64,000 bases of DNA, from assembly GCA_963835065.1 (NCBI GenBank), contig CAWIEK010000049.1, positions 256,001 to 320,000 on the forward strand. Reading direction: 5' to 3'. A program made the position numbers and the translations under genes. Positions within the stretch are counted from its first letter, which is position 1. Each line of letters begins with the position of its first letter. Under the pieces are notes generated by a model that searched no databases, was not told where the DNA came from, and was given only the letters and a program-made list of their open reading frames with translations. Origin of the DNA: an uncultured Chthonomonadaceae bacterium (GTDB lineage Bacteria; Armatimonadota; Chthonomonadetes; Chthonomonadales; Chthonomonadaceae). Below, piece by piece: positions 16,454 through 41,979 of the stretch.

Positions 16454-19223
16454 ATGCCAATCCGCGCGGAGAATTACTCGCCTCCATCCATTCTATCTGT
16501 CCGACGCGCTCCGCGCCTTACCGCCTGCGCGTGGGAGTACCCGTTTCTCCTCGCTTTTGCCATGCTGCTGCTCTGGCCGTTGTGCCGGGGGCGTTCGCTG
16601 TACTGGGGCGACATCATGCTGTACTTTGCGCCGATGCTGCATTTTCAGCAGGCCGCGTTACAGCAGGGGCATATTCCGCTGTGGAATCCCACTATTTTGG
16701 GAGGCCAGCCGCTTGTCGGTAATCCACAGATGGGCGTGTTCTATCCGACAACGCCCTTGCTGCTCGTGATGCCCGTCTGGCTTTACATGAGCCTGACCAC
16801 AATTGGACACGTTTTCCTGTGCGGAATCTGCATGAACGCCTACTTACGGGAGTGGACGCAGGATCGCTGGGCGCGACTGGCCGGCAGCCTGACGTACATG
16901 GGCAGCGAGTGTCTGATCGGGCGTATCCAGTTCCCGCCGATGATCTTTTCCGCGCCGTATTTTCCTTTGCTGCTGTGGTGCATTGACCGCTGCCTGGTCG
17001 CCGAACACGCTCACTGCGGCTGCCGCAGAAAGGGAACAGAGAACAGGGAACAGGGAACAGAAGAAGGAAGAAAAGAAGACAGCAGGACAGGGAACAGGGA
17101 ACAGGGAACAGGGAACAGGAATTCGTCTGTTCCGATTGAACCTAAAACAAAACATGAACATGAAACGGAAAACGCGAACGTAATCGAAGCAGTATGTGTT
17201 GAGAATGGCGACTCTACAATTTCGTTGGGTCTACGCTGCGAGACATGCATGCGCGTTCAACGGCAGCGCGTTTGGACGCGCGTTCGATTGTCGCTTGTTG
17301 TCGGCCTGCTGATACTTGCCGCGCATCCACAAATGGCCTACCTGATACTGGCTGTCGGCAGCATTTACACAACGGCGCGTTTGTGGAAGCAAGCGTTACA
17401 TGGCGAACAGACGGCAGGCAAACCGGCGTTATCCGGCAAAACAATCTTTGAACTGCGCGACAGTTCCCATAAATACCCTCGCGCCTCTAATTTACGCGCT
17501 TTCATCCGAACATTGGCTTCGAGCGGCGCGGGACTTTTCGGGGCCGGCCTACTGGGACTGATGCTGTCCGCCGTACAAGCGCTGCCTGCCCTGCAGGTAC
17601 TGCTGGAAAGCCCGCGCGAAAAACTGACGCCGGCGCAGGCCAATCGCTTTTATCTGGAGCCGGCGCATCTGCTGCGGCTGATACTGCCGCGCTTTTGGGG
17701 ACATCCGGCCACTGCGGATTACTGGGGGAGCGGCAATGCCTGGGAACCGGCTTTCTTTGTCGGGTGGCTTCCTCTGCTATTGATTGGTCTTGCCTGCTTT
17801 CGGCTCAGAAAAATCGCGCAAAGTGATGTTCTGGCTGGCAGCCGCGCTGTCGGGAATATGGCTGGCGTTCGGTAATCAAGGCGGGCTTTACTGGCTGGCG
17901 TTCAAAATCGTGCCCGGCTTATCGAATTTTCACGACCCAGCTCGTTTCCTGCTGTTTACGACGCTGGCCTTCGCTGTGCTGACAACAATAGGATGGAACA
18001 TCGGCTGGCAATTCATTTCACGCCGGTTTAAGCGCGAACAATTGTGGGAGAAAATTGGTTTCCTGCGACGTTTTGCATCCTTACAAAGAGCCGGACGTTT
18101 CGTAACGCCAAAACAATCGCGTTTGCTTGTGTTTACCTTGCGGAGTGTCGGAATTGCAGGCATAGCTTTACCCTTGTGGTGGTACGGCAGGGATTGGAAT
18201 CCAACTGTGCCGCATGAGTTTATGGAACGGCAGTCTCACGCGCTTGCTCTTGCGCAGCCACGACCCATTAATGTTACGAAACCAAACGTAACAAATTCAT
18301 CCGATCTAACGAATGGTTCCTTAGACAATTCCCGGCAGCGCATCTATCTTCCCGCCCACGAACCGTTCTGGAAGCGCTATATTACGGATGGGTACAGCGA
18401 TTATGGCTCTGTTGATGCGCTCCATATACAAGCCATGCTGGATACGCTGCTGCCGAATCTAAATATGCAGTGGGGCGTGGACTCGGCCTCCGGTTACGAA
18501 CCGGTTCCGCTTTCCGCGCCGGCCAACGTGGATGTTCTGGGACGACTGGCGCTGCGCAGAAGTGAACCTAATCTGTCACGCCTGCTGTCGCTGATGGGCG
18601 TTGGAACGCTGCTGCTGCCCTCCGAGGACCACATTGCCGCTTCCAGCCTGTCGCCGGAAAATGATCGCCGCTTAGAAGTACGCGCGTGGCGCAATCTGAA
18701 TGTTCTGCCGCGCGCCTGGGTTGTACATTCCCTCCGCCGCGTGGAGGGCAAAACTCGTCTCAGCGCCGCGCTCGCCGCGCCCGACTTCCACCCGGCACAA
18801 CTGGCTTTGATTCAGGATGCGGTTGAAGGGGAGGGGAAGGAAGCCGAACTGGAATGGCCTGCGCCACAAGCGAATGACAAATCTGAGAATAGTTCGACTC
18901 CTACGCCTGTTCACCTCGTGTATTCGGATACACACAGTTTTCAATGGAATGTGGAGGGCGGGGGAGAACCGGGTTTTCTGGTAGCGCGCGCGACGGCGTT
19001 TCCCGGCTGGCAGGCGGAATTGGATGGGCATCCCACACCCCTGCATCGCGTGGACGGGGCGTTGATGGGCCTGTACTTGCCGCCCGGCAGCCATCGCGTT
19101 GCCCTGCGATATGCGCCTGCCTGTTACCGGTTTGGTGGGTACTTATCCCTGCTGGCCTGTGGAATGTTAAGCGCGGCTGCGGGCTGGCTGCTTACTTCCC
19201 GACCAAAAAGAGTCCAAACCTGA
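16454..19223 (+). CDS. YfhO-family membrane protein (GT-C-like); +1 frameshift near 17810
   Basis: GDIMLYFAP, IPLWNP..GGQPLVGNPQ..FYP, HPQ, F.DPARF, PRAW, FPGWQAELDG, GSHRVALRYAP. Confidence 0.85.
17031..17140. repeat. In-frame (GGGAACA)n element in the YfhO gene
   Basis: Encodes GTENREQGT..GNREQGTGNR; 17118-17136 is the exact reverse complement of 19833-19851. Confidence 0.85.
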
Positions 19224-19266
19224 CCTGAAAGAGTCCAAACGTAATCCGTCCGGGTCTAAAGCCATT

Positions 19267-21114
19267 TTGAACGTCTCTAACACCTTCAGAATCATAACTG
19301 CGCTGCTTTTATGGGGGGCGCTGATACTGCTTCGCGTAGTACATCTCGACTCGGACGCTTACGCGCGCCTTTCCTGGAGCAGCGCGCTCCTGACGGACGA
19401 AGGCTTTTATATCCACAACGCCCGCAACATCATTCTGTTCGGACAGATGCGTACCGACGAGTTCAATAACGCGCTGATCATGCCCTTGCTGCATCTGGTT
19501 CAAGTGGTCGTCTTTACTCTGTGCGGCGTCGGAGCGATTCAAGCGCGGCTGATTTCCGTTGCCTGCAGCCTGCTTACGCTTGCCGTGTTCTTTTGCGCCC
19601 TCCGCCGCGCCTTCGGCAGCCGCGCAGCATGGCTCGGCCTTGCCCTCCTCGGCCTTGATCCCGTCTTCGCGCTTTACAATCGCCTCGCCCTGATGGACAC
19701 GCCCGCCTGCCTGCCGTTGTGCGCCGCCTTTTATGCGTGGACGCGAACGAAGGGAAAAGGGAAAAGGGAAAAGGGAAAAGAAGAAATAGAAGACAGAAGA
19801 CAGAAGACAGAAGATACGCAACTCCAGCCTCTATCGGAACAGACGAATTCCTTTTCCCTTTTCCCTTTTCCCTTTTCCCTTCCCTGGCTGTTACTGTGCG
19901 GCGGCTGTCTCGGCCTGGCGTACACCGTCCGGGGATTGGCGGCGGTGATTGTGCCCGTGCCGTTTGTGCTGCTGTTGGTAAGAAGAGAGGGGAGCAGACG
20001 TTCGCGGGTGCGGGATGCGCTGCTGTTGTTCGTCGGGTTGCTGTGCGTCCTCGCGCCGTATGCGCTTTTATGGTATCTGCCGCATCGTCAGGAGATGGCC
20101 CATGCCAATGCGTATTACACGCGCCAGCAACTGCTTCCCCAAAATGGACACGTCCTGCTTGAAAACATAGAACGCGGTTTATTCAACGGTGGGCGTGGGA
20201 TGTTACCCTACTTGCTGAAACACTCTACGGCTTTGACATTGTTAGCGATTTCGTATGCCGCGACCTGTCTGTGTTCCTGGGCAGGGCAATGGCTTGGACG
20301 CTGGAAACAACGCGACACACAACAGAAAAGCAATTTACAACAAAATAATGGCCGACAAGAAGACAATGCAGGATTAAAAAAGACGATAAGCACTGAATTG
20401 TTTCTTGCCGGATGGCTGTTGCCCCTGCTCATTCTGACACTGTGCGTAAATTACGCGCCAAGCCGGTATTATGTTCTATTCTATCCGCCGCTTGCCGGTT
20501 TTGCGGCTATATATGCAGATCAACTACTGAGCCGTGTACAGAAATGTCTACGCGATGGAGCGCAAGGGAATAGACACAAGGCTTTGGCGCATTTGTTCGT
20601 AACGAATTTGTTCATAGTAGGCTGGATTGCGGGCGGCGTATACTGGTACGCGGATTGGCTGCTGCATCTCAGTTACCGGCAGCGGGACGCGGATCGCTGG
20701 CTGGCAGCAAATCTGCCGCCTGACAGCGTCCTGATTGGCGCTGTGTCGCCGGGATTAAGCATGAACAACAGGTTTCGGTGCGTCAACGTCATTGAGAACC
20801 TGTGCAATGATGAACACCCGGTCGAAGACGCCGCGCCCACGCCGCGCTACATCGTTTTGTTGGATCGTGAAGCGGGCTACGCGCCTGTTCCGGCCTCCTC
20901 GTCACCCGGCATCATCTCCTATAGAGATAAATGGGCGGATAGATGGAAGGAGCGCTACTGGCTGCGCCGTTATCCTGACCTTGTGCAGCCGCAGCGCCGT
21001 ATCAAGGCGTTTCCAAATATGCTGAGACCGTTCTTTACCATTGGCGTTTACCCGGTCCCGGAAGCGTATTCACAAAAAACGGGACGGAACGGCAAAGTAA
21101 CTGCGCAGCCCTGA
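19267..21114 (+). CDS. ArnT/PMT-like (GT39/GT83) glycosyltransferase
   Basis: TDEGFYIHNARN after TM1, ARLISV, RLALMD, RYY, many TMs. Confidence 0.8.
   Translation: MNVSNTFRIITALLLWGALILLRVVHLDSDAYARLSWSSALLTDEGFYIHNARNIILFGQMRTDEFNNALIMPLLHLVQVVVFTLCGVGAIQARLISVACSLLTLAVFFCALRRAFGSRAAWLGLALLGLDPVFALYNRLALMDTPACLPLCAAFYAWTRTKGKGKREKGKEEIEDRRQKTEDTQLQPLSEQTNSFSLFPFPFSLPWLLLCGGCLGLAYTVRGLAAVIVPVPFVLLLVRREGSRRSRVRDALLLFVGLLCVLAPYALLWYLPHRQEMAHANAYYTRQQLLPQNGHVLLENIERGLFNGGRGMLPYLLKHSTALTLLAISYAATCLCSWAGQWLGRWKQRDTQQKSNLQQNNGRQEDNAGLKKTISTELFLAGWLLPLLILTLCVNYAPSRYYVLFYPPLAGFAAIYADQLLSRVQKCLRDGAQGNRHKALAHLFVTNLFIVGWIAGGVYWYADWLLHLSYRQRDADRWLAANLPPDSVLIGAVSPGLSMNNRFRCVNVIENLCNDEHPVEDAAPTPRYIVLLDREAGYAPVPASSSPGIISYRDKWADRWKERYWLRRYPDLVQPQRRIKAFPNMLRPFFTIGVYPVPEAYSQKTGRNGKVTAQP
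19750..19883. repeat. In-frame fold-back element (GGGAAAA)4-(AGACAGA)3-core-(TTTTCCC)4
   Basis: Encodes KGKGKREKGKEEIEDRRQKTEDTQLQPLSEQTNSFSLFPFPFSLP. Confidence 0.9.
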
Positions 21115-21152
21115 TGGAATTTCGAGAGATTTGTGCTAGAATTGTTGTTGTG

Positions 21153-21662
21153 ATGAAAGTATTGGAGATGATGAAAACCCACGTCACGACCACGCGCCCG
21201 GAAGCCACGCTTGGCGAGGCGATTGATCTGATGGATTTGTATCAAGCGCCGAGCCTGCCCGTTGTAGACGCCGCGCGCTGTTTGTGCGGTATTCTTACGT
21301 CAGAAGATGTTCTGCGCGCCATGATGAGTCAGGCCAACCTTGCGTCTGATACAAATCAGCAACAAGAAACACAAGAATACGGTGAGCCACAAGCCAATGA
21401 ACCGGGTACGGATGCACCGAACACAAATAACTTGCTTGTGGAACGCGCGCTTCGGGCAAAACATGCGGCGCAATACACTGTTCGGGACTACATGACCCCT
21501 GTTGTCATTAGTGTTTCCGAACACGCCGATGTTGAGCAGGCGGCACGGCTGTTATTATCGCGCCAATTGACGCGCCTGCCGGTTACGGACGAATTGGGGC
21601 GCGTCGTAGGCACTGTAAGCCGCGTTGACGTGATACAGGCTGTTTTTGAAGCCTTACTGTGA
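21153..21662 (+). CDS. CBS domain pair protein
   Basis: LPVVD..GILTSED; VRDYMT; LPVTD..VVGTVSRVDV. Confidence 0.9.
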   Translation: MKVLEMMKTHVTTTRPEATLGEAIDLMDLYQAPSLPVVDAARCLCGILTSEDVLRAMMSQANLASDTNQQQETQEYGEPQANEPGTDAPNTNNLLVERALRAKHAAQYTVRDYMTPVVISVSEHADVEQAARLLLSRQLTRLPVTDELGRVVGTVSRVDVIQAVFEALL

Positions 21663-21725
21663 TTAGATAGTAGATAGTTTTTAGTTGATAGTTGATAGGG
21701 AGGCAGGAACCGCGAACTTTCAGCG
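21662..21725. repeat. (AGTTGAT)n array plus GGGAGGCAGGAAC tail
   Basis: Matches 8868-8925. Confidence 0.75.
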
Positions 21726-21818
21726 GCCTGCGGCCTTGACAATCTTTGAAGTTTAGCAAGCCTTGAAGTTTAGATTGAAGTTGAAGTTTCGTGTGAAGAT
21801 GAGAAGGGATGTGGAGAG

Positions 21819-23093
21819 ATGCGCGCGCGTTTTGGCAAGAATACCTATCGGCATATCGCGGCACAGGCGGCGTTGCTTCTGGCTGCCGGGCTATCCCTGG
21901 CGCTGGCCGGCTGTAAAGACAAAGACACTTCGGGTACGACAACCGGTGGCGGCGGTGGCAATACGACCACTGCAAGCACGTCCGGGGGCGGGAGTGGCGA
22001 TGAGATCGTCATTGGCGAATACGGCTCCTTCACGGGCAAGCAGTCCGACTTTGGAATCCAGACCGACAACGGTATTCAACTGGCAGTTGCGGAAGCCAAT
22101 GAAGCCGGAGGCGTGGACATTGGCGGCAAGAAGATGAAAATCCGCCTTGTCACGGAAGACGATCAGAGCGACTCCACCAAAGCGGATACCGCCGTCAAGC
22201 GCCTGATTGATGAAAAGAGCGTGACCGCCATACTTGGCGAAGTGGCAAGCGCATGCAGTCAGGCCGGGGGCAAAGTATGCCAGGAACGGGGCGTACCCAT
22301 GATTTCGCCGTCCTCCACCAACGAAACCGTTACGCAGAACCGTGATATGGTTTTCCGCGTTTGCTTTATTGACAGCTATCAGGCTGGAGTGGTTGCCCGC
22401 TTCATCAAGGACGGCCTGAAAAAAACCAATGTCGCCACGTTCACGAACAAATCGGAAAGCTACTCGGTCGGGTTTACCGACGAGTTTAAGAAAAAGTTTA
22501 CGCAGTACGGCGGCAAAATTCTGATGGAGCAGACGTATGGCTCCAACGATCAGGATTATCGCGGGCAGTTGACGGCCATCAAATCCGCCAACCCGGACGC
22601 TATCCTGGTTCCCGGCTACTATTCGGATGCCGCCAGCATCGCAAAGCAGGCGCGTGAATTGGGCATTACCGTTCCGCTACTCGGCGGGGACGGCTGGAGT
22701 TCCCCCGAATTGATCAAGATCGGCGGCAGCGCGCTGGAAGGCTGCTACTTCAGCGATCACATGTCCATTAAAAACCCCGATCCCATCGTGCAGAACTTCG
22801 TCAAGGGTTATTCCGGCAAGTTCAAAACGGAGCCGACCTCTATGTCGGCGTTGGGCTATGACGCGGCCAAAATCCTGTTCGATGCCATGACCCGCGCCAA
22901 GTCAACCGATAAAAAAGCCATTCGGGACGCGCTTGCGCAAACGAAGGATTATACGGGCGTAACCGGCAAAATCACCATTGATGAAAATCGTAATGCCAAA
23001 AAGCCCGCCGTTATCAATGTCGTGAAAAACGGCAGTTTCGATTTCGCCGCGACCATACCCGACCCGGATCAGCCGATGCCGGCAAAGCAGTGA
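21819..23093 (+). CDS. livK: Branched-chain amino acid ABC transporter substrate-binding lipoprotein
   Basis: Lipobox LAGC; EDDQS, ISPSST, FRVCFIDSYQ, GGDGW, LGYDA, GVTGKITID. Confidence 0.9.
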   Translation: MRARFGKNTYRHIAAQAALLLAAGLSLALAGCKDKDTSGTTTGGGGGNTTTASTSGGGSGDEIVIGEYGSFTGKQSDFGIQTDNGIQLAVAEANEAGGVDIGGKKMKIRLVTEDDQSDSTKADTAVKRLIDEKSVTAILGEVASACSQAGGKVCQERGVPMISPSSTNETVTQNRDMVFRVCFIDSYQAGVVARFIKDGLKKTNVATFTNKSESYSVGFTDEFKKKFTQYGGKILMEQTYGSNDQDYRGQLTAIKSANPDAILVPGYYSDAASIAKQARELGITVPLLGGDGWSSPELIKIGGSALEGCYFSDHMSIKNPDPIVQNFVKGYSGKFKTEPTSMSALGYDAAKILFDAMTRAKSTDKKAIRDALAQTKDYTGVTGKITIDENRNAKKPAVINVVKNGSFDFAATIPDPDQPMPAKQ

Positions 23094-23095
23094 TA

Positions 23096-23213
23096 AGGCA
23101 GGTTTCAGGTTTCAGGTTTCAGGAAAAACTCTTCATTTAACGTTGATCTAGTAAATTCATCGAGTGGAATGAACAGTGAGTTCTCCCTGACACCTGAAAC
23201 CTGAAACCTGCCT
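23096..23213. repeat. Fold-back element with (GTTTCAG)n arms; 28-bp inverted repeat with 1 mismatch
   Basis: Arms 23096-23123 and 23186-23213; internal TGAACAGT. Confidence 0.9.
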
Positions 23214-23227
23214 CTTGGAGCCTCTTC

Positions 23228-24349
23228 TTGTCTAAGGCAGTAGAGATATTTCTACAACAGTTCGTCAATGGCATCCAGACCGGCAGCGTGTATGCGCTGA
23301 TCGCGGTCGGGTACACGATGGTGTATGGTGTCCTGAAGTTCATCAACTTCGCGCATGGCGACGTGTACATGGTCGGGGCGTACATCGGCCTGTTCGCGGT
23401 TGCGGCTATTCTGCCGCACAATGGGCCGCTGACGCAGGATATTATCGTCCTGCTGCTGTGCATGATGGGGTGCGGGTTGTTGGGCGCGTTTATCGAGCGT
23501 CTCGCCTATCGTCCCCTGCGTAACGGCCTGAGCGGAACCGATGCCTGGCCCTGGGCGCTGTTCTGGGCGCTGTACATCGGCCTGTTTGCTGGCCCGGCTG
23601 TGGAAGCGCATAGTTCCTTTAATGGCGTGGGCGCGTTTTTGATTACGGTAGGGATCAGTTTTGTGGTTTTGACGCCCATCCTGCAGCGTCTGTTTGCCGG
23701 GGTAGGGAAGCGGCTGCGGCCTTCGCGCAATCGCCTGACCGCGCTGATTACCGCCATCGGATTGTCGCTGCTGCTGGAAAATCAGGGGCAAGCCTCGTTC
23801 GGGGCGACGCCGCGCCAGTACCCGGATCAGGGCTTCAAGCCGCAGATACTTTCGATTGGCGCAATTCATGTTGATATTAACGCGGGGCGGCTGATCGTAC
23901 TCGGAGCCGCCGTGATCCTGATGGCGGTTCTGGTCTACATCGTGCGCAAGACCCGGACGGGACGCGCCATACGCGCCGTTTCCTACGACATTGAAGCGGC
24001 GGCGCTGATGGGAATTCCCACGGATCGCATTGTCGCGCTGACTTTCGTAATCGGCTCTGCCTTAGCAGGCGCAGGCGGTTTCCTGAACCACAACCTGGGG
24101 CAGATCAAGTTCGACGCCAACATCGGCATCCAACTTGGCCTGAAAGCCTTTGTAGCCGCTGTGCTGGGCGGTATCGGCAGCATAGAGGGCGCGGTATTGG
24201 GAGCCATGCTGATGGGGCTTGCTGAAAGCTACACGGGTGGTTCCGCGCTCAATGCGTTCAAGGACGGAGTAGGCTTCGTGATTCTGATTGCCGTGCTGTT
24301 GTTTCGGCCTGCCGGTATCCTGGGCCGCAACACGGTTGAGAAAGTTTAG
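23228..24349 (+). CDS. livH: Branched-chain amino acid ABC permease with an internal insert
   Basis: GSVYALIAVGYTMVYGVL..INFAHG, TRTGRAIRAVS, KAFVAAVLGGIG. Confidence 0.92.
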   Translation: MSKAVEIFLQQFVNGIQTGSVYALIAVGYTMVYGVLKFINFAHGDVYMVGAYIGLFAVAAILPHNGPLTQDIIVLLLCMMGCGLLGAFIERLAYRPLRNGLSGTDAWPWALFWALYIGLFAGPAVEAHSSFNGVGAFLITVGISFVVLTPILQRLFAGVGKRLRPSRNRLTALITAIGLSLLLENQGQASFGATPRQYPDQGFKPQILSIGAIHVDINAGRLIVLGAAVILMAVLVYIVRKTRTGRAIRAVSYDIEAAALMGIPTDRIVALTFVIGSALAGAGGFLNHNLGQIKFDANIGIQLGLKAFVAAVLGGIGSIEGAVLGAMLMGLAESYTGGSALNAFKDGVGFVILIAVLLFRPAGILGRNTVEKV

Positions 24350-24506
24350 CAAAGTTCAGCTCGGTTACAACTTTTGCTTCGTATATTCCCATATTTCCCA
24401 TTTTTTAGTGTGTTCAAAACCATCGTCCTTACCGTAATACATGCAGTTAGCCATGCAATGATGCTTGCCATACCGCCGTGTGTTCATCCGTTTTCTGTCT
24501 AAGTTC

Positions 24507-26873: not shown

Positions 26874-27581
26874 TTGCTGACGATTACCGATTTGAACGTG
26901 TACTATGGGGCGATACGGGCGCTGGACGGCATCTCGCTGACGGTCAATCAGGGCGAGATTGTCTGCATGATCGGCGCAAATGGGGCGGGCAAAAGCACGA
27001 CTATACGGACGGTCTCCGGGCTTGTGCGGCCGCGTTCCGGCGAAGTTTCGTTTGAAGGCAAGGCTTTGCACCGTCTGCCGCCGCATGATATTGTTACGCT
27101 TGGGGTGGGGCAGTCACCCGAAGGCCGACGGGTCTTTGCCAACATGACGGTACGCGAGAATCTGGATTTAGGCGCGTTTACCCGAGACAAACACAAGGCG
27201 GAAAAGCGCGACGATCTGGAAAAAGCTTTTACGCTGTTTCCCCGCCTCAAAGAGCGGGAAGCGCAGCTTGCCGGGACGCTGTCCGGGGGAGAGCAGCAAA
27301 TGCTTGCCATCGGACGCGCGCTGATGTCCCGCCCGCGCCTGCTGCTGCTCGATGAACCCTCTTTGGGACTCGCGCCCTTCCTCGTCAAGAACATCTTTCA
27401 GATCATACAGGACATCAATCAGCAGGGCGTGACGATCCTGCTTGTCGAACAAAACGCCAATCAAGCGCTCCGCATCGCCCACCGGGGCTATGTCCTGGAA
27501 ACAGGCCGCGTCGTGCTTGCCGACACCGCCGCCGCGCTGCTGCAAAACGACAGTGTGCGGAAAGCGTATTTAGGAGAGTAG
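26874..27581 (+). CDS. livF: Branched-chain amino acid ABC ATPase
   Basis: GANGAGKST, PEGRRVF, LSGGEQQMLA, LDEPSLGLAP, VEQNA. Confidence 0.95.
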   Translation: MLTITDLNVYYGAIRALDGISLTVNQGEIVCMIGANGAGKSTTIRTVSGLVRPRSGEVSFEGKALHRLPPHDIVTLGVGQSPEGRRVFANMTVRENLDLGAFTRDKHKAEKRDDLEKAFTLFPRLKEREAQLAGTLSGGEQQMLAIGRALMSRPRLLLLDEPSLGLAPFLVKNIFQIIQDINQQGVTILLVEQNANQALRIAHRGYVLETGRVVLADTAAALLQNDSVRKAYLGE

Positions 27582-27704
27582 GTTTCAGGTTTCAGGTGTT
27601 AGGTGTCAGGAAAAAGCGCTACCTTGCCTATTACTTGAACAGTAGACTACCCAAGGCAAGTAGATACTCCCCTGACACCTAACACCTGAAACCTGAAACC
27701 TACT
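27577..27704. repeat. Fold-back element with a perfect 34-bp inverted repeat, filling the whole intergenic gap
   Basis: 27577-27610 is the reverse complement of 27671-27704; inner stems; TACT-TGAAC-AGTA. Confidence 0.95.
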
Positions 27705-32137: not shown

Positions 32138-32175
32138 AAATGTCCCCTATTCTCTCGCCGCGCTTTGTAAGGAAT

Positions 32176-32817: not shown

Positions 32818-34098
32818 CTAATCATCGCCGCTTTTGATGGTTCTTTCCACGACGGCAAGGAATTCCTTGTTGGTTTTGGTATGCTGCAGGCGATCCTTGA
32901 GCAGTTCGGTGGCTTCCAGAGGATCAAGGCCGTGCAGCAGGCGGCGCAGTTTGACGATCTGCTTGTACGTTTCTTCATCGTACAGCAATTCGTCCTTGCG
33001 CGTACTGGATTTCAGCGCAATGGCGGGAAAGATGCGCTTGTCCGCAAGGCTGCGGTCAAGCTCCACTTCCATGTTTCCCGTGCCTTTGTATTCCTCAAAG
33101 ATGAGGTCGTCCATGCGGCTTCCGGTTTCAACCAGCGCGGTAGCCAGAATGGTCAGGCTGCCGCCTTCCTCTATGTTACGCGCTGCGCCAAAGAAACGTT
33201 TCGGACGGTACAGCGCGGCGGGGTCAAGCCCACCGGCAAGGGTACGTCCGCTCGGCGTCACGGTCAGGTTGGAGGCGCGGGTATAGCGCGTCAGGCTGTC
33301 CATCAGAACAACGACATCCCGCTTGCTTTCCGCCAGTCGCTTGGCCTGTTCCAGAACCATGTCCGCCACGCGCATGTGGTTTTCCGGCGTCTCATCGAAG
33401 GTGGAACTGATCACTTCCCCCTTCACCGAGCGGCGAATGTCCGTCACTTCTTCTGGCCGCTCGTCAATCAGCAGCACGATCAGAATACATTCGGGATGGT
33501 TGACCGTGATAGCGTTGGCGATTGTTTTCAAAATCGTTGTTTTACCGGCTTTGGGTTGCGCCACGATCATGCCGCGCTGCCCCTTGCCGATGGGACAGAT
33601 AATGTCCATGATGCGCCCAACCATTTCCTGCCGCGTGGTTTCCAGCGTCAGGCGGTCATTGGGATAAATGGGCGTCAAGTCGTCAAAATTGACGCGGTTA
33701 CGCGCTACTTCTGGGTCAACGCCATTAACGCCTTCCACGCGCAATAGACCATAGTATTTTTCCGAGTCTTTGGGCGGGCGCACCTGCCCGGATACTTCAT
33801 CGCCGGTTTTCAGGCCGAACCGCTTGATCTGTGTTTGCGACACGTAAATGTCTTCGGCATTGGGCGAGAAATTGCTGCGGCGCAAAAACCCCCACCCGTC
33901 CGGCAAAATCTCCAAAATCCCTTTGGCGTGAATGTAGCCGTTGCGATCCGTTTGTATTTGCAGAATGCGCCCGATCAGCTCATCTTTGCGCGTCGAAGTG
34001 GCGCCCGTTCCCACGCCCAGGTCTCTGGCGAGTTCCTGCAAATCATTCAGGCTCTTGTTTTCCAGATCGGACAAGTTAAAACTGAGGTTGTCTTCCAT
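32818..34098 (-). CDS. rho: Transcription termination factor Rho
   Basis: DGWGFLR, DIYVSQTQI, PIGKGQRG, PKAGKT, LIDERPEEVTD, KGTGNME. Confidence 0.98.
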   Translation of the reverse strand: MEDNLSFNLSDLENKSLNDLQELARDLGVGTGATSTRKDELIGRILQIQTDRNGYIHAKGILEILPDGWGFLRRSNFSPNAEDIYVSQTQIKRFGLKTGDEVSGQVRPPKDSEKYYGLLRVEGVNGVDPEVARNRVNFDDLTPIYPNDRLTLETTRQEMVGRIMDIICPIGKGQRGMIVAQPKAGKTTILKTIANAITVNHPECILIVLLIDERPEEVTDIRRSVKGEVISSTFDETPENHMRVADMVLEQAKRLAESKRDVVVLMDSLTRYTRASNLTVTPSGRTLAGGLDPAALYRPKRFFGAARNIEEGGSLTILATALVETGSRMDDLIFEEYKGTGNMEVELDRSLADKRIFPAIALKSSTRKDELLYDEETYKQIVKLRRLLHGLDPLEATELLKDRLQHTKTNKEFLAVVERTIKSGDD

Positions 34099-34423
34099 TA
34101 TGTTTTTCGTCACCTCACGAGGATGCCCGGAAGCGATGCTTGTCGAACGCAGCCCGCTTCCGGTACAGCGCTGCGCAACGAAGGAGTGATGGTCCATTCT
34201 TCCCCATTGCTAAAGCAAGAGGACGTCAGGACGAGATTGGTAAAAATGCGATACAGATGGCAAAATGGCAAAGATGGTAAAAGCGATAAAGCAGAAGGTA
34301 ATCAGAAGAAGAACTAACGCTCACGCTTCAAGAAGAAATACCGAAAGAAATACACGCGAATCAGCAACCAGAACAAAAACCAACAGCCGTCAGCACAAAG
34401 ATCAACAGCCATTTTCATCAACA

Positions 34424-34996
34424 TCAATCATTGGGGCTGTCAAAGTTTACAACGCCGATGTAGCGCAGATTGCGGTATTGTTCCGCATAGTCCATGCCAT
34501 AGCCCACAACAAACTTGTCTTCGATTTCAAAGCCGCGATAATCCACATCAATTTGTACTTGCCGACGGGCGGGCTTGTCCAGCAAAACGCACACTTTCAC
34601 GCTGCGGGCATGGCGGGCGCGAAGCGTTTCAATCAGATAGCTGAACCGCAAGGTCAGGCCGGTATCCAGTATGTCCTCGACAATCAAGACATGCTTGCCT
34701 GCGACAGCCGCTTCCAAATCCTTCAGGACGCGCACCTCGCCGGATGTTTTGGTGGCGGCTCCGTAAGACGACACAGCCACAAAATCGAATTCTACCGGGC
34801 GCTCAATGCACCGCACGAGATCGGATAGAAATAGCGTTGCGCCTTTAAGGACGCCGACGAGCAGCAGCGGCTCCGCGCGGTCAGGATAATCGCGGGTGAT
34901 GGCCTCACCAATTTCCCTCACCCGCTGCTGTATGACCTCTTCGGACATAAGTTCCGTCAGGAAGTGGTCAGGCAGCGCCCCGGTTTGTTCCTCCAT
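34424..34996 (-). CDS. hpt: Hypoxanthine phosphoribosyltransferase
   Basis: GVLKGA, VSSYG, LIVEDILDTGLT, FVVGYGMDY. Confidence 0.96.
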   Translation of the reverse strand: MEEQTGALPDHFLTELMSEEVIQQRVREIGEAITRDYPDRAEPLLLVGVLKGATLFLSDLVRCIERPVEFDFVAVSSYGAATKTSGEVRVLKDLEAAVAGKHVLIVEDILDTGLTLRFSYLIETLRARHARSVKVCVLLDKPARRQVQIDVDYRGFEIEDKFVVGYGMDYAEQYRNLRYIGVVNFDSPND

Positions 34997-35021
34997 CCCC
35001 TCTCCCATCTGTTCCTGACTA

Positions 35022-35115
35022 TCGGTGTTCGGTATTGGGTGTTGGGAAATGCGTACCTGCTTAACACAAGATAACATGCGAGTAAATCGAAAACCAACAC
35101 CCAATACCCAACATC
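35022..35115. repeat. Fold-back element with (TTGGGTR)/(ACCCAAY) heptamer arms
   Basis: tcggtgttcggtattgggtgttggg ... ccaacacccaatacccaacatcc. Confidence 0.75.
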
Positions 35116-35190
35116 CACCTACACTATATATTCACACTCCCACTGACTTTTAGAAGGTCGAGCCACCACTATTTTGAAAAATTATGAAAT

Positions 35191-36864
35191 TCATTCCCAT
35201 TCGATAGTGGCGGGAGGTTTGGAACTGATGTCGTAAACAACGCGGTTGATGCCGGGAACTTCATTGACGATGCGGGCGCTGATGCGTTCCAGCACATCGT
35301 AAGGGATACGCGCCCACTTCGCGGTCATAAAATCGTCGGTGGTCACGGCGCGTAAAATGATGGGATGGGCATACGTGCGCTGATCTCCCATGACGCCCAC
35401 GCTGCGGATCGTCGCCAGTACCGCCAGCGCCTGACTGTACTCCCGGTAAAGACTGGCCGCGTGAAGCTCGTTCAGGAAAATTTCATCCGCGCGCTGCAAG
35501 GTGTCCAGGCGTTCGGCGGTAACATCGCCCAGGATGCGGATCGCAAGGCCGGGTCCGGGAAAGGGGTGACGCCAGACAATGCTGTCCGGCAGGCCGAGTT
35601 CAGAGGCGGCGGCGCGGGCCTCGTCCTTGAACAGCAGCCGCAGGGGTTCGATTACCTTTAAAACCATGTCTTCGGGCAGGCCACCGACATTATGGTGTGT
35701 CTTGATGGTCTGCGCGTGCTTGCTGCCGCCCGATTCGATTACATCCGGGTACAGCGTTCCCTGTGCCAGAAACTCCACTCCCTGTAGATTATCGGCATGT
35801 TCTTCAAAAACGCGCACAAACTCATTGCCGATAATTTTACGCTTTTGTTCCGGGTCGGTAATTCCCGCCAATTTCGCCAGAAACCGCTCCCGCGCATCGG
35901 CGTAGATAAGGTTGATACCGAACGCGGCGGCGAAATCGTCTCGCACCTGTTCTGCTTCGCCGCGCCGCAGCAGGCCGTGATCTACAAAAATGCACGTCAA
36001 CTGATCGCCAATCGCCCTGTGCATCAGCGCTGCCACGCAGCAGCTGTCAATGCCGCCGGAAACGCCGCACACAACGCCTGCCGTACCCACTGTTGCGCGA
36101 ATTTGGGAGATAGCTTGTTCTACGAAATTGGCAGGCGTCCAGGTTCCCTGACAGCCGCACGGCCCCAGAACAAACGCCCGCAGCAGTTCGGCTCCAAAAG
36201 GTGTATGCGCCACTTCGGGATGGAATTGAACGCTGTACAAGCGCCGCGCTTCATCAAACATCGCGGCGACGGGCGTACTGGCCGTCGTAGCCGCGACAGT
36301 AAAGCCGGGTGGCGGAGCCAGTACCGTATCGCCGTGACTCATCCAGCAAGGCAGTTTTGCGCCTTCACTGGCGATGTTCTTAAAAAGAGGTTCGGCGCGA
36401 ACTACGGTTATCTCTGCATCCCCATATTCCCGTTCCTGCGCAGGCCGCACTTCCCCACCCAACTGATGCGCCATTAACTGCTGGCCGTAGCAGATACCCA
36501 AAATGGGAACGCCGAGATTATATATGTCCGCGTCGGAATGAGGAGCGCCGTCTTCATACACGCTGGACGGCCCGCCTGAAAATATAATGCCGCGCGGCTT
36601 TCGCGCCGCGAGTTCTGCCGCCGGCGTATTGAAGGGCAAAATTTCGCTGTAAACATGACATTCGCGGACGCGCCGAGCAATTAGCTGCGTATACTGAGCG
36701 CCAAAATCCAGTATCAGCACCAGTTCCTGAGCAGCCTTGACGCTTTCCTGTTCCTGAACCGTTGTCGCAGACGCGCCGGAACCATCATCAACCCTGCTAT
36801 CGAAACGGGAAACAGGGTCGGCATTGAGCGCGAGTTCGCTTATCGGCATGGGTTCTAATTGCAT
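35191..36864 (-). CDS. guaA: GMP synthase (glutamine-hydrolysing); start uncertain
   Basis: [56 protein letters not shown]. Confidence 0.98.
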
Positions 36865-37194
36865 AATGCGGGAGTTTCCTGAATTCGCGCCGGTGCAAAA
36901 AGGCACACAGACTGCGCGGGTTTGTTCGGAAATCAGTATTGGAATATCGGGGTCGAACAGGGATTGACAGCGAATGACAGATACTCAAGAATTCGCCTGA
37001 AGTCACCTTCGGCGGGTATCGGGTCACAAGCAAGAACAATGTAAAAAGAGTAACCGGGTTAAAAGGGAAAAGACGCAAATGCCACGTCAGTGCAGAACGA
37101 ACATGCCAGTGCAAAGCCAAAAACACAATTGGGGCAACAATGGCCTGTGGGCAAACGCGGAGGACCAAGCGCGGAAGGGCTTGATTTCTCTTCT

Positions 37195-37223
37195 AGTATA
37201 GCGCATATTCTGCTCTGCGTCAA
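37195..37223 (-). promoter_or_regulatory. Sigma70 promoter upstream of guaA
   Basis: TTGACG-N17-TATACT on the minus strand. Confidence 0.75.
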
Positions 37224-37327
37224 GGCATAGCGCGTAAAAACCGCTAAATAATCTCATTTTTCAGTAAAAAGACGTAACTTCAGCCTTTTCAGCGCCTCAT
37301 TCACGCCTATCATCCTACCAATCATCC

Positions 37328-38152
37328 TCAGTAATTCTCTTCCGGCGCGTCTTCCGCATCGTTTTCCTCATCGCCGCGCTCCAGACGTTCCGCCTGTATC
37401 ACTTCGCGCGGCGTTTCTTCTTCCAATCGGGCTTGGGGCGTATCCAGCCACGCCTCATAACTCTGAAACAGATGTTCGCGGACGGCTTCCACATCCAGGC
37501 CACTGTGAAGCAACTGCTCCCGCTCTCGTTGCCAGTTGTCGTTGGCCTCGCGGTGCAGCGTAGACTCGCGCCAGCCCATCACATCTCCCCACTCCAGGCC
37601 ATCCCCTATCTCGCGGGGCAGCCACAAACTGCGGGTATCCAGATCATCTTCCAGTTCGGCGCACCACTCGCGGAAGCCCATTTCCCAGGCGCGTTCATCT
37701 ACGCTGTTCAGCGCGGCGTACTCCCGGCGCCGTTTGGCATAAAAGGCCGTATCGTCCAGCACGGACTCAACCCATTCCGGGGCAAGTTCAGGATGTTCGC
37801 GGCGCAAGTATCCGAAAAAGCGGTGCAGCGAGTCGGGCAGGCGCTCCTCGATTTCTTCTTCCGCCTGCGCCTTGCGTATGTAATGGCTGAACATGAACCA
37901 GCGCAGTTCAAATTCGTTGATGTCGGCAATGCTTTTCTGATACTGATTGGCAAGGTAATCTACGAGGAACTCGGCATTGAAACTGTCCTGTTCCGCAATG
38001 CGCGACCCCAATTCCAGCCCGGTATCCACCCAGTTGGAAAAGGCGTCCAGTTGCTCATAGCCTAAATCCAGCAGTTCCTGAATATCCGCATTATTGTCTT
38101 CGCTGTCGCGGCTCCATCCCCCTTCGGGAATGTCATCATCAGCACCGTTCAT
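37328..38152 (-). CDS. Hypothetical acidic protein
   Basis: 274-aa ORF with SD; very E/D-rich; WLDTPQ..L...TPREVI..ER near the C-terminus. Confidence 0.7.
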   Translation of the reverse strand: MNGADDDIPEGGWSRDSEDNNADIQELLDLGYEQLDAFSNWVDTGLELGSRIAEQDSFNAEFLVDYLANQYQKSIADINEFELRWFMFSHYIRKAQAEEEIEERLPDSLHRFFGYLRREHPELAPEWVESVLDDTAFYAKRRREYAALNSVDERAWEMGFREWCAELEDDLDTRSLWLPREIGDGLEWGDVMGWRESTLHREANDNWQREREQLLHSGLDVEAVREHLFQSYEAWLDTPQARLEEETPREVIQAERLERGDEENDAEDAPEENY

Positions 38153-38331
38153 ACCCGCCCTCTATTTCCCACATCAAGATTATCACTCTTACGACTTCCA
38201 CATCTCGCCACGAAATCTTATACCCCGTTCAACGCAGAACTAAGCCAAACAGTTCCATCAGAAGTGGAGAGTGCTGAGTGAGTGTGAGAGTGAAATGGGC
38301 TTCTACTCCCCATTCCCTACTCCCTACTCCC

Positions 38332-39669
38332 TTATACCGTCGCCTGCACACTTGTCATAAACAGCAGCGCCAGAACGGCGAGAATGGCTAACAAGGCGGC
38401 TCCGGCATGGCCTTTGTACTTGGGAGGGAAGCAAGCCTGCCAGCCCATTGCCAGCAGCAGGCAGATCGGCAGCATCGCCGGGTACAGATACCGTCCTTGC
38501 GCCTGAAAATACTTGCTCAGAAAAAGCGCAAACGACGCGCCGACAAGAATTAACGTTGCCATCAGCAACTGAATGAACTTCTGCTGCGCTTCCGTGAATA
38601 CGGTTTTGCGGACGAAATGCAGGCGTATCAACCCACCCAACGCGCTGATGCAAACCAGCAGGGGCAAAATGTAAATCTGAATGGGCAGAAACAATTGATC
38701 GCCAATCCTGGCTGAATCCTTGTTGCCGTACACAGCCCAAAAACTGAGAAACGAGCGTAACGAAACGGCTTTAACATACTCGAACGTTCCAATATGCGCA
38801 ATAAACGCGCTTGCCTGCGCCGTGCCGCCAAATGCCTGATTAAAGGTTTTCAGCGGCAGCAGTTCCCCGTACAACTGCTGATTGCGAACCAGCCACCACC
38901 CGCTGATAACGAGCATCAGCGTCAGCGCCCACAGCAGATTGCGGGCAAGATTGGCCGCAGGTTCCCCACCCCGCCACAGCAGCGCAAGCGCCAGCAATGT
39001 CACCGGCAGGAGCAGCAGCGCGGTTACTTTCGTCAGCAGGGCAAGGCCGAGGAGGATGCCGAGCCATCCCGCCCGCCACAGGGAAAAACCGCGCAGCAGG
39101 GATTGCGCCAGCAGCCACAAACACGCGCTGAACCACGCTTCCAAAAGAACGTCATTGTTGATCGTCGAGGTAATGGCGATATGGGACGGCAATAAAGCGG
39201 CAACGCCTGCCGCCACAACAGCCAGAATCGGCTCATCGGGGAACATCAGGCGGGCAGTGGAATACACGAGCAGGATACAAACAAGGCCGAGCATAATGGA
39301 CGCGACCCGCATTCCCTGTCCGCCCAACGGCACAAACAGGCGCGTCCACACGTAATACAACGGCGGCTGATGCCATTCATACGCTTGCCCGCTTTTGTCC
39401 AGCGTAGCCGACGCCTGCGTGGGCAGATGCCCCGACACCAAACTTTGTACGTAACGAACATGCGCAGCCTCGTCCGGCGCGTTTTGATAGCCCGTTTGCC
39501 CAACCGGAACCCAACTCGCGTGAAGCCCTGCCAGAACCAGATAAACTAGCAGAAGAAGGGGCAGTACGGCCTTCCACGCTCCGGGCAGGGGTTGCGGCGC
39601 GGGCGGAAGCGGCGACAGGGGCGGGCCGGGATCGCTCAAAAGCGGCTTACGGCGCGGCGGACGGCTCAC
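38332..39669 (-). CDS. GT39/DUF2142-like membrane glycosyltransferase
   Basis: APDEAAHVRYV, YEWHQPPLYY, INND, QAQGRYLYP; GTG start overlaps the upstream TGA. Confidence 0.82.
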   Translation of the reverse strand: MSRPPRRKPLLSDPGPPLSPLPPAPQPLPGAWKAVLPLLLLVYLVLAGLHASWVPVGQTGYQNAPDEAAHVRYVQSLVSGHLPTQASATLDKSGQAYEWHQPPLYYVWTRLFVPLGGQGMRVASIMLGLVCILLVYSTARLMFPDEPILAVVAAGVAALLPSHIAITSTINNDVLLEAWFSACLWLLAQSLLRGFSLWRAGWLGILLGLALLTKVTALLLLPVTLLALALLWRGGEPAANLARNLLWALTLMLVISGWWLVRNQQLYGELLPLKTFNQAFGGTAQASAFIAHIGTFEYVKAVSLRSFLSFWAVYGNKDSARIGDQLFLPIQIYILPLLVCISALGGLIRLHFVRKTVFTEAQQKFIQLLMATLILVGASFALFLSKYFQAQGRYLYPAMLPICLLLAMGWQACFPPKYKGHAGAALLAILAVLALLFMTSVQATV

Positions 39670-41979
39670 GGCTTCCCTCCCTGTGGCGCAATGCTTGACG
39701 GCGCGACATTTTGCGGCGTAACATTCGGCGACATGCCTTGGGGCGCGGCGTTCGGCGCATCGCTCGTACTTTTCATTTGCATCACCACGCAGCCATGTTC
39801 GTTGAAAATCGGCGTCCACAAGCCCCGCTTGATGGCGTCGCCCATCAGTTGATGCCCCCGATCTCCCGCCGCGCCTGTGGTCAGGCCCTCCACATACCAC
39901 TTTTGCAGCGCATCAACTTCCACGCCGTTCGGCCCACCCGGAAAATCAGGGTCACGAGTTCGGCCCGTTGTTTTGCGCCGCCTGATTGAGATTTATCAAG
40001 GCGTATTCAATCCCGTGCCCGCGAAACCACACGGTCAGTTCCGCGCCGTTTTGCAGCGTTTCGTAAGGAATGTAGGACGAGTGCTGCTGATTAGCCCACA
40101 CATACAACCGATCCAGATAAAAGCCCCGCGTTTCATCCACAAGAGCGATACCGGCGCTTGGGGGAGTGTTCTGGTTAATCCATTGTTCGGCATCATAAGC
40201 GTCGAAGTGTCGGCGTAAATCCATGTCCCATGCCTGCGGCTGCGCCAGATTAGCGAACAGGGTCGGAACCGACACGCTGGAAGGCATTTGTCCCAATTGC
40301 GTCAACGCCCTGCGCTCATCCCCATTGGCGTTCATCGGCAGCGTACACACAGACAGCAGCACATAGCCAGCCTGCCCGAAAACAGCGACAATGCCCAATA
40401 CGCCCGGCACTTGGGCGAATGTCAGGCGTGGCAGGCGTTTCGCGCTACTACTGTCAGCATTACCGCTACTCTCCGTAAACACAAACCGACACGCGGCATA
40501 CGCGCCCACAATGGCAAACAAAGGCATTACCTGAATCAGATAACGCCCCACCTGCGACAATATAAACCACGCCAGAACCTGCCCCATGCCAAGCCACAGC
40601 AGACCGCGAACGGCAGGCGATATTCGACGGACAAACGCTAAGGGAAACACAAGCGCGGCGTACAATCCCCCAAACAACGCCGTAAAATTATATTCCCCCG
40701 GATTGCAGTACAGGACGCTCGATTTCACGTTCGGGCGCGTCAGCAAATGCCAGGGAACCTGTAGGATATTCAGCAGCTTGCTGCGAACATCCGGCGACAG
40801 AGGCTTAGTTCCGAACTTGTCCTGCTCCGATTGATAGGAAGCCGCGCGTTCCAGACTCCAATAACGGCTCTGCGGAAACGCTTTCGTCACAAACGGATAC
40901 ACGGGATTGCGCATCACAACGATGTTCTTCACGTACCAGGGCGACCCAATCGCCAGCGCAACACCGACAAACAACGCAGTCTTTCGGATTGGAACCCGCG
41001 TCAACAACAGCATGATCGTCATCAACCCGAACGGCACAAGCGCCAGATACTTCATCCCCAGCGCGAAGCCCATGAGCGCCCCGGAAAGGAGGAGAAGGGA
41101 ACAGGGAACAGGGAACAGGGAACAGGTATCTGCTTGTTTTGATAAAGGCGGTAATTGTACATCTTCTGTCTTCTGTCTTCTGTCTTCTGCGACCTCCCTG
41201 TTCCCTAACCCCGAAACAAGCGCAAAGGCGGCGAGCGTGGTGTACGTGGCGAGGCCGACATCTATGTACGCGACACTGCACTCCCACAGTACCATCGGGG
41301 TCGTGACGAACACGACGGACGCCAGCCAGCCGACAACAGGCCGCAATACCCGGCTGCAAAAGCCGATTATGCCCATCACAAGGAAGCCGGCTAACAGCAA
41401 ATGGAACAGATTGGAAAGCGCGTAGCCATTGTAAAGCAATCCTGCGGCGAAGAGCATTTCCAGGGTAAACGGAAAGTTGCTGTGATGCTCGGTAGGAAGG
41501 TTGGGAATACGATGCTGAAGCAGAAACAGCTTTGGATCGGCAAGATGATAGGAAAGCGCGTCCCATTCCAGCGGTCCCGGCGGACGAAAACAGGCGAGGA
41601 GCGCAATTAAGCCGAAAACAATCAGAAAAATTACGCAGGCGATAATCAGCCCCGTTTCCAAGCCCCACTTTGATGCCGATGCGACAGCAGCGTTACGCTT
41701 GCGCTGTCGCCAAGACTGAAAATCGCTGCCATAACCACGCCAACCACCCCACCCTGCCGCTGCCAGCGCCAGCCACCAACAAGTGACCGGCCAGAAAGAT
41801 AACAGTCCTGCCAGGCCGAGCGCGTACACGCCATAGGCGGCAATGCCCAGGCCAAGCGCCCCGCCATAAGCCAGGCGTTCCAAGGGCGCAAAGATGGGAA
41901 GATCAAGCCGATCCAGCAGCGCGCGTCCAACGGCAGCGGCAATGCAAGCAAATAGTATTATCAGCAACAGTGCAATCAT
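39666..41979 (-). CDS. GT39/ArnT-like membrane glycosyltransferase; +1 frameshift near 39960
   Basis: WDALSYHLADPK, PWYVKN...NPVYPF, RYL; continues in ORF 39666-39923. Confidence 0.8.
41096..41212. repeat. In-frame fold-back element homologous to 19750-19883
   Basis: Encodes GNREVAEDRRQKTEDVQLPPLSKQADTCSLFPVPCSL. Confidence 0.9.

Follow-up and report, generated by a model that had tools for sequence, protein, structure and literature searches.

In the genome of an uncultured Chthonomonadaceae bacterium (GCA_963835065.1), three genes for membrane glycosyltransferase-like proteins contain in-frame arrays of tandem heptamers. An earlier note on this DNA had described them as one and the same element with swapped arm units, acting either as a source of new peptide loops or as an RNA element which is removed before translation. 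The locus raises the questions whether a single element was inserted three times and whether the inserted sequence reaches the protein. The analyzed window comprises 64,000 nucleotides (contig CAWIEK010000049.1, positions 256,001 to 320,000). The genome under study is referred to as G000, its sister genomes as G001 and G002.

Three glycosyltransferase genes and their inserts

All three host genes show a GT-C fold or family profile, namely the YfhO and PMT_2 profiles and, for the third gene, a fold match to ArnT. A sequence search of this third gene against solved structures gave no match, but comparison of its protein model with known folds (Foldseek) revealed GT-C enzymes, with ArnT as the best match (E 6.6e-6). 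The frame of the YfhO-like gene is broken by one extra base at 17809, which is absent in three independent metagenome runs (X1, X2 and X3) and is probably an assembly error. Its orthologue in G002 is a single frame of 846 aa. The split of this gene had been overlooked in the earlier note.

Table 1. Host genes, inserts and further members of the repeat family in the window.
Feature	Position	Strand	Description
YfhO-like GT-C gene	16382..19223	+	Split in the assembly: ORFs 16382-17875 and 17784-19223; Pfam YfhO on second ORF
PMT_2/ArnT-like GT-C gene	19267..21114	+	615 aa; Pfam PMT_2, E 1.7e-11
GT-C fold gene	39952..41979	-	675 aa; no Pfam hit; model mean pLDDT 80.8
Insert 1 (YfhO-like gene)	17031..17136	+	Two left-type heptamer arrays 17034-17060 and 17087-17119; 19-nt stretch 17118-17136; residues about 217-252
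Insert 2 (PMT_2/ArnT-like gene)	19750..19883	+	Left arm 19750-19780; inner left-type module 19788-19814; 34-nt core 19816-19849; matched right arm 19850-19881; residues about 162-206
Insert 3 (GT-C fold gene)	41096..41212	-	Left arm short and broken, near 41197-41212; inner module 41162-41189; core 41127-41160; right arm 41096-41126; residues about 256-295
Fourth in-frame insert	2399..2469	+	In ProRS-like gene 1994-3448
Intergenic member	23099..23210		Matched arms; spacer about 60 nt; z -10.3
Intergenic member	27580..27701		Matched arms
Member at gene junction	49682..49875		Matched arms

The inserts are 106-134 nt long and contain no ORF of their own. Insert 1 consists of a left arm and 19 nt and lacks a right arm. 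Insert 2 folds into a long, near-perfect stem (z -6.5), folding is less strong in insert 3 (z -3.2), and insert 1 shows none (z -0.9). The formation of a hairpin sets inserts 2 and 3 apart from most in-gene copies. A search of the 64-kb window with Rfam found only a tRNA and no match across the inserts. The peptides quoted earlier for inserts 2 and 3 are indeed encoded in the open frames of their host genes, and the proposed position in hydrophilic loops between transmembrane helices is borne out by hydropathy for all three, as each lies in a hydrophilic stretch flanked by hydrophobic segments. For insert 3 it is also seen in the protein model, where the insert is located between helices 238-271 and 292-308, with pLDDT < 50 at residues 276-288.

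The cores of inserts 2 and 3 align without gaps over 34 nt, as the earlier note had stated, with 20/34 identical positions (59%; shuffle p 8e-5, same register). Of the 52 sites located after the same inner heptamer module, these two match each other best (next best 14/34), and both inserts occupy an equivalent loop. Judged from these alignments, the two cores are probably related. In an unanchored comparison, however, one core finds about 20 other elements with at least 20/34 and the second core about 13, so the kinship is only moderate. The 19 nt which insert 1 shares with insert 2 as a reverse complement, also reported earlier, occur at these two places only in the whole genome, 2.7 kb apart.

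These similarities would fit the transposition of a single RPE-like MITE, conserved in its core, into the three glycosyltransferase genes, which might thereby have a functional loop in common. Yet no further copy of either core is present in the 8-Mb genome, the identity is only 59%, and insert 1 is reversed and lacks most of the core. In the sister genomes, the same loops contain unrelated inserts or none. Insert 1 is absent from the G002 orthologue, and in a strain of run X2 it is 39 nt (13 codons) shorter with the frame kept. This reading has very little probability. On the sequence evidence, the three inserts do not represent a single element present three times, and the earlier description of the same element in three genes cannot be kept as it was worded.

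A genome-wide family of polar heptamer arms

The analysis of the whole genome revealed 2,334 heptamer arrays at 1,454 sites, counts that are somewhat inflated by near-identical duplicated contigs. Perfect arrays are concentrated at period 7 (1,330), compared to 239 at period 8 and 6 at period 6. The elements are polar, with a G-rich (left) arm first and a C-rich (right) arm last. In 334 matched non-coding pairs, comprising 32 units, no unit was seen in both orders, and the order right before left was found in 0/163 in-gene sites with several arrays. Spacer length peaks at 50-60 nt (184/532 pairs). The commonest spacers form a homologous family of 70 members dispersed across the genome. Its copies are all diverged instead of representing a burst of identical ones, and no member was found in a gene or in the window. 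Further members of the heptamer-arm family were identified in the window (Table 1). One of them, at 23099-23210, is one unit (7 nt) shorter in a strain of run X2.

At least 254 of the 1,454 sites are in frame, located in 224 ORFs of which many are housekeeping genes, including MetRS and ProRS. Of these sites, 32/254 belong to ORFs with at least four predicted transmembrane segments (275/4,874 among all called proteins; the gene calls are home-made and missed insert 1). The inserts are not peculiar to glycosyltransferases. A paralogue spanning both flanks is available for 60/254 in-frame sites. Among paralogue-bridged sites outside this class, 7/9 are out of frame (6 shifted by one base in or near the repeat, 1 intergenic); the shifts at these 6 sites may reflect errors of the assembly or genuine damage.

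Units are replaced at fixed sites. In one paralogue family with 12 members, one and the same spot is empty in 2 and filled with differing left and right blocks in 10, and the length is a multiple of three in 9/10. The loop of the PMT_2/ArnT-like gene contains different units in G000, G001 and G002, and the same was observed for one intergenic site. At orthologous sites both arms switch their unit together. The inserts of MetRS are different or absent in 4 relatives. Distant orthologues, the comparison proposed in the earlier note, have short loops without inserts, and the inserts are lineage-specific. The swapping of arm units is real, but it is not peculiar to the three genes and takes place genome-wide and across species in this family. 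Metagenome contigs end at inserts 2 and 3. One contig of run X2, among many contigs from other loci, has an additional base at 17080 inside the repeat.

Signs of selection on the encoded peptide

Inside genes, the repeats show signs of a filter acting on the peptide. For units that are stop-free on both strands, the more hydrophilic reading is preferred (131:14, 35:0, 32:0, 28:0, 16:0, 15:1 and 13:2). Where the TGA of a unit would fall in frame, the codon is GGA in 10/10 and 31/33 cases; TGA is kept in 7/7 cases out of frame in genes, and outside genes it is found in 114/118 and 190/232. Since the ORF-based class excludes in-frame stops by definition, the weight of these numbers lies in the uniform use of GGA and in the out-of-frame contrast. 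The same GGA-type unit is also present in a cassette arm of genome G021, and the GGA variant may be a standing variant that was picked by selection and did not arise in genes. The assumption that a hydrophobic right arm is kept where it runs into a transmembrane helix was unsupported (2/43 vs 8/211, p 0.68), in a weak test whose strict hydropathy cut-off scored inserts 2 and 3 negative too.

The outer arms are matched in only 20/163 in-gene sites with several arrays, in contrast to 430/589 elsewhere. This bears on the question whether the inserts act as RNA. The intervening sequence (IVS) of the Coxiella 23S rRNA, which carries the S23p gene, is described as having heptameric repeats at its 5' end, the first of which is cut by RNase III (PMC4990558). 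Matched hairpins might be cut in the same way without rejoining, so that insert 2 would set the mRNA level of its own gene and the peptide would be incidental. The long stem of insert 2 is consistent with this, as is the gene context of the matched non-coding elements, which mostly lie between co-directional genes (322/367 classified) and rarely between divergent ones (10/367 vs 553/3,330 background gaps). However, the outer arms are mismatched in the remaining 143/163 in-gene sites, insert 1 is unfolded and the YfhO orthologue of G002 has no such insert. As an explanation of the three inserts, RNA cleavage is distinctly unlikely; for the intergenic copies it can be combined with the explanation preferred below.

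It is extremely unlikely that the inserts behave like introns, being excised from the mRNA with rejoining of the ends to give proteins without these loops. Inserts 2 and 3 do fold back on themselves, and the arms are similar to those of an element cut from rRNA, but that element is described as excised without rejoining (PMC4990558). The commonest hairpin families carry stops, but no stop-bearing matched hairpin interrupting a gene was found in the genome. The sole candidate (G000:C2:180626) was rejected, because relatives carry its Ppx-like and HD-like parts as two distinct genes. The in-gene copies are hydrophilic, keep the frame and lack in-frame stops. Taken together, the mismatched arms, the hydrophilic reading, the filled stop slot and the lack of stop-bearing interrupting hairpins point to translation and not to excision. 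The inserts are likely translated as floppy loops. The removal of an RNA element, suggested earlier, is unsupported, and the alternative suggestion of a source of new peptide loops gains support from the lineage-specific inserts and the peptide-level signs of selection.

Relation to known repeats and possible origin

To our knowledge, there is no accepted mechanism for the spread of dispersed heptamer repeats in bacteria. Cyanobacterial repeats of this sort are named STRR, and the small dispersed repeats of cyanobacteria, reportedly treated by Elhai and colleagues in 2008, may overlap with the pattern found here. Parts of this pattern are already published, namely for STRR and the P6b loop, the Coxiella IVS and the RPEs. 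A literature search in a collection with few subscription journals, directed at a link between four-helix-bundle proteins and heptamers, at repeats of Armatimonadota and at in-frame STRR/SDR, yielded no description of the in-gene pattern.

In the Nostoc trnL intron, P6b is described as a stem-loop of complementary 7-nt repeats whose class was repeatedly replaced at a fixed site and whose length changes in steps of one unit (PMC4476775). The over-represented tandem heptamers and the replacement of complementary arrays at a fixed site are similar here. However, P6b is described with two repeat classes and is located in non-coding intron sequence, whereas G000 has at least 32 units, hundreds of sites in protein frames and chimeric arms. 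For Beggiatoaceae (PMC4679880) and for Xanthomonas and Nostoc (PMC4692102), dispersed arrays of about four heptamers are reported, with one stop-bearing orientation that is excluded from genes, and convergent inverted pairs in Xanthomonas. According to these accounts, each genome uses a single unit, and genes contain few copies, mostly close to their ends (24 sets), whereas the in-gene copies found here are internal, frequent and composed of several blocks. RPEs are palindromic families of ~150 bp with a conserved peptide, for which a review quotes 44 insertions (PMC10969869). The analogy to RPEs drawn in the earlier note applies to the outcome, the in-frame insertion of peptide segments into unrelated genes, but not to the anatomy: the inserts are mosaics built from blocks of tandem heptamers, with no conserved core and no ~150-bp family in which one peptide is conserved.

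A similar layout is that of ORF-bearing 23S rRNA IVS of Coxiella and Leptospira (S23p/PF05635), described as inverted arms of tandem heptamers with a purine-rich 5' side and variable copy number around a four-helix-bundle ORF (PMC4990558). The three PF05635 genes of G000, all on other contigs than that of the window, have the same layout and are flanked by the same type of arms. Inverted flanks scoring at least 20 were found at 19/21 full-length PF05635 loci (controls at most 13). PF05635 genes were the only ones found inside such arms, apart from GxxExxY genes in arms of other periods. Two reverse transcriptase genes are present in the genome, and nothing ties them to the repeats. In contrast to the 23S rRNA IVS, the three inserts have no ORF, are located in protein genes and are seemingly translated, and the in-gene arms of the family are mostly mismatched. 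The long terminal stem typical for these IVS is present in insert 2, in part in insert 3 and not in insert 1. In the array-bearing genomes G001 and G015 (97% and 94% complete) PF05635 was not found, which makes the link between repeat and protein a loose one.

The arrays of these two genomes also fit a replication by-product, in which slippage would build the arrays and template switching would copy one arm onto the other, with no moving element or protein partner and the same filtering in genes. The joint switch of both arms and the diverged copies of the commonest spacer family are in line with this, as is the comparison of filled and empty paralogues, in which no target-site duplication was obvious by eye (the paralogues are too diverged for a clean test). 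It leaves unexplained the absolute left-right polarity, the restriction to period 7-8, the peak of spacer length, the dispersal of the 70-member spacer family and the arms around 19/21 four-helix-bundle genes, and we consider it rather unlikely.

We therefore prefer, with a probability of roughly 0.7, the explanation that the three inserts are members of the genome-wide family of polar heptamer arms, likely gene-less relatives of four-helix-bundle (23S-IVS-type) cassettes, which became established in a tolerant loop of GT-C paralogues and whose sequence likely appears in the protein as a floppy loop. Repeat blocks would be exchanged between sites through recombination or gene conversion, and slippage would alter their copy number. 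Such an exchange would account for the kinship between the cores of inserts 2 and 3 as well as for the 19 nt common to inserts 1 and 2. In genes, selection would then retain stop-free, mostly hydrophilic combinations, resulting in chimeric left and right pairs. For the placing of elements at new sites, the four-helix-bundle protein is no more than a candidate. It is a tentative idea that this S23p/Avd-like protein serves a non-transposase mobile system with the heptamer arms as its ends. The gene-less derivatives of this system would form a combinatorial loop library in this lineage, from which copies of stop-free, hydrophilic left and right blocks pass between genes in fixed order, and would have rewritten loops in more than 200 proteins, including MetRS and ProRS.

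The three glycosyltransferase inserts are thus ordinary members of their family. The genome offers an unusually large sample of in-gene copies with built-in controls, given by empty and filled paralogues, by intergenic and in-gene copies and by single sites at which sister species have different units. As a candidate partner, the four-helix-bundle protein can be tested. The filter on inserted repeats is measurable at the peptide level and bears on the question how new loop sequence enters old proteins.

Inserts in three membrane protein genes

The feature described in the earlier note is real and the first reading was partly right, but it is not one element in three genes. Both peptides quoted there are contained in the open frames of genes 2 and 3, and insert 1 lies in the 5' half of the YfhO-like gene 1. 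The hosts were taken to be membrane glycosyltransferase-like, and a YfhO profile, a PMT_2 profile and the fold match of gene 3 identify them as GT-C proteins; the predicted structure of gene 3 (mean pLDDT 80.8) has ArnT as its top fold match (E 6.6e-6). In agreement with the claimed hydrophilic loops, hydrophobic segments bracket a hydrophilic stretch at all three inserts. The loop that holds insert 2 is equivalent to the one that holds insert 3.

The 34-nt cores of inserts 2 and 3 align without gaps, as had been reported, at 20/34 positions (shuffle p 8e-5). Within the set of 52 sites that share their anchor, each core has the other as its top match, and the runner-up reaches 14/34. Without the anchor, at least 20/34 is reached by about 20 other elements for one core and about 13 for the other. 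The two cores probably have a common ancestor, for which the sequence evidence is moderate. Inserts 1 and 2 do share the 19 nt noted before, which are found nowhere else in the genome. A genome search found no further copies of either 34-nt core, and insert 1 is missing the right arm and is without a fold (folding z -0.9; insert 2, -6.5; insert 3, -3.2). The same element in three genes was therefore an overstatement.

The YfhO-like gene is split by one extra base, which is missing in all three metagenome runs (X1, X2, X3), and its orthologue in the related genome G002 is a single frame of 846 aa; from these sequences, the split is likely an assembly error. The window also contains a further in-frame heptamer insert in a ProRS-like gene, and tandem repeats within ORFs that have no relation to the heptamer family.

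Features in the window (plain positions) and on contigs (C) of the genome G000
Feature	Position	Strand	Remark
Gene 1	16382-19223	+	YfhO-like
Insert 1	17031-17136		in gene 1
Frame split	~17809		in gene 1
Gene 2	19267-21114	+
Insert 2	19750-19883		in gene 2
Gene 3	39952-41979	-
Insert 3	41096-41212	-	in gene 3
ProRS-like gene	1994-3448
ProRS-like insert	2399-2469
Tandem repeat	55670-55844		33-nt
Tandem repeat	8758-8853		21-nt
Junction stretch	24374-24435		intergenic; runs X2, X3; 60 to 66 nt
Junction stretch	41981-42035		53 to 135 nt
Spacer family, example	C1:33484
Multi-copy region	C2:97758		dozens alike
L112	C33:57207-57524		four-helix-bundle gene
GxxExxY (PF13366) genes	C19:8329; C39:76631; C3:174084
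Reverse transcriptase genes	C49:681456-682613; C50:52482-53912

A heptamer family across the genome

Perfect arrays with a period of 7 occur 1,330 times in the genome, compared to 239 for period 8 and 6 for period 6. With mismatches allowed, 2,334 arrays were found at 1,454 sites, which by our own gene calls are intergenic (741), across gene ends (328), in frame (254) or uncertain (131); the in-frame count overlooked insert 1, and some duplicated contigs are included. The in-frame sites are spread over 224 ORFs, and multi-TM proteins host 32 of the 254 (background 275/4,874 proteins). Near-identical duplicate genes, some with single-base shifts in repeats, are present on contigs C43/C69, C27/C29, C25/C37 and C13/C14/C63, possibly due to strain mixture or assembly error.

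The arms keep a fixed order: the 334 non-coding pairs with exactly matching arms contain 32 units, each in one order only, and the units on the left are rich in G. The right arm precedes the left at 0/163 multi-array in-gene sites and at 8/589 other sites. Spacer length has its maximum at 50-60 nt (184/532 pairs). A family of 70 diverged spacers (~55 nt) lies between matched arms of several units; the proposed arm swapping is genuine in this family, but the family is absent from genes and from the window. Its orientation to flanking genes is random (25 vs 28) and it is mostly located between co-directional genes. Matched non-coding elements shun divergent gene pairs (10/367 vs 553/3,330 background), which fits a place within transcripts. 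One left unit, in 3 copies, occurs 340 times in G000; five relatives have it 7-51 times, and a search of 41 genomes did not find it in 35. Another region is present in many copies and seems to be the 5' leader shared by a large family of paralogous genes; a single right-type array precedes the ribosome-binding site in part of these copies and is missing from the rest.

Probable translation, and turnover, of the in-gene copies

The earlier note had also considered an RNA element removed before translation. Four results, all from sequence comparison, point instead to inserts that are translated and not excised. Outer arms are matched at 20/163 in-gene sites vs 430/589 elsewhere, so most in-gene copies would be unable to form a long stem. 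Units that are stop-free on both strands favour the more hydrophilic over the other reading (131:14, 35:0, 32:0, 28:0, 16:0, 15:1, 13:2). Two of the left units contain a stop; where its slot falls in frame it reads GGA (10/10 and 31/33), out of frame it remains TGA in 7/7, and outside genes it is TGA in 114/118 and 190/232. Since an ORF by definition has no in-frame stop, the weight lies on the uniform choice of GGA and the out-of-frame contrast. The GGA type was also seen in the arm of a four-helix-bundle cassette in the related genome G021 and may thus be a standing variant. Finally, a paralogue spans both flanks at 60/254 in-gene sites and 9/1,200 others, where a site without a paralogue or without complete flanks is unable to score. 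The nine comprise six base-shifted sites, two in frame and one matched stop-bearing hairpin; the hairpin was rejected as a gene interruption because the adjoining genes are separate in relatives.

For gene 3, 30 orthologous loci were compared, 29 of which cover the loop. It is short in orthologues of other families and variable in length inside the family, so the same loops in distant taxa, which would have spoken against inserts, were not encountered. Repeat-derived peptides occur in the window's copy, G002 and the related genome G019, with the G002 blocks built of other units. In the same loop of gene 2, G001 (another relative) and G002 have their own inserts, purine first and pyrimidine last, of different units. 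The gene 1 orthologue in G002 is without a repeat insert, and in a strain of run X2 insert 1 is 39 nt shorter with the frame kept. The strain indels listed within genes 1 and 2 are multiples of three, except the extra base of gene 1 and one unassigned repeat base. Two gene-junction stretches are wholly replaced in close strains.

A paralogue family identified by shared-motif search has 12 members, two empty and ten whose inserts, all in one position, are made of differing left and right blocks; insert length is divisible by three in 9/10, one of these nine having in-frame stops. MetRS carries two inserts that are different or missing in four relatives, and one intergenic site has matched arms in G000, G001 and G002 with a different unit in each. 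Blocks are probably exchanged through recombination or conversion, with additional slippage. The kinship between the cores in inserts 2 and 3 fits local copying, as do the 19 nt common to the neighbouring inserts 1 and 2.

Known systems and four-helix-bundle cassettes

Published reports describe a terminal stem of 28 bp, heptameric repeats that vary and cleavage by RNase III without rejoining for the Coxiella S23p IVS (PMC4990558), repeated swapping of one heptamer class for another at a single site for Nostoc P6b (PMC4476775), filtering of orientation by stops for Beggiatoaceae repeats (PMC4679880), inverted heptamer pairs in Xanthomonas (PMC4692102) and in-frame insertion of RPEs (PMC10969869). 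The inserts are RPE-like in outcome, being in frame, whereas their anatomy resembles IVS/STRR arms. They do not belong to the IVS family, as they have no ORF and lie outside rRNA, nor to the RPEs, as the conserved core is absent. In the part of the literature covered, chimeric, hydrophilicity-filtered heptamer inserts on this scale were not found described.

All three PF05635 (four-helix-bundle) genes in G000 lie between heptamer-type arms. From 30 fetched loci, 21 full-length ones (two from G000) were scored and 9 partial or weak hits excluded; inverted flanks score at least 20 at 19/21, control flanks at most 13. PF05635 is present in 21/41 genomes and was not found in G001 and G015, both of which bear arrays and count against a strict dependence of arrays on PF05635. 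At L112, a four-helix-bundle gene inside inverted arms, a 207-aa open frame starts well upstream, and a fusion with the last part of the neighbouring gene is possible. Three GxxExxY genes have, by eye, inverted purine-first arms with periods other than 7. Two reverse transcriptase genes are present; the one on C49 presumably adjoins a Cas1-like ORF, and the one on C50 has what we take to be a retron-like look.

We give a chance of about one in four to the reading that the arms are the ends of a non-transposase mobile system served by the four-helix-bundle protein, whose gene-less derivatives would form a combinatorial loop library.
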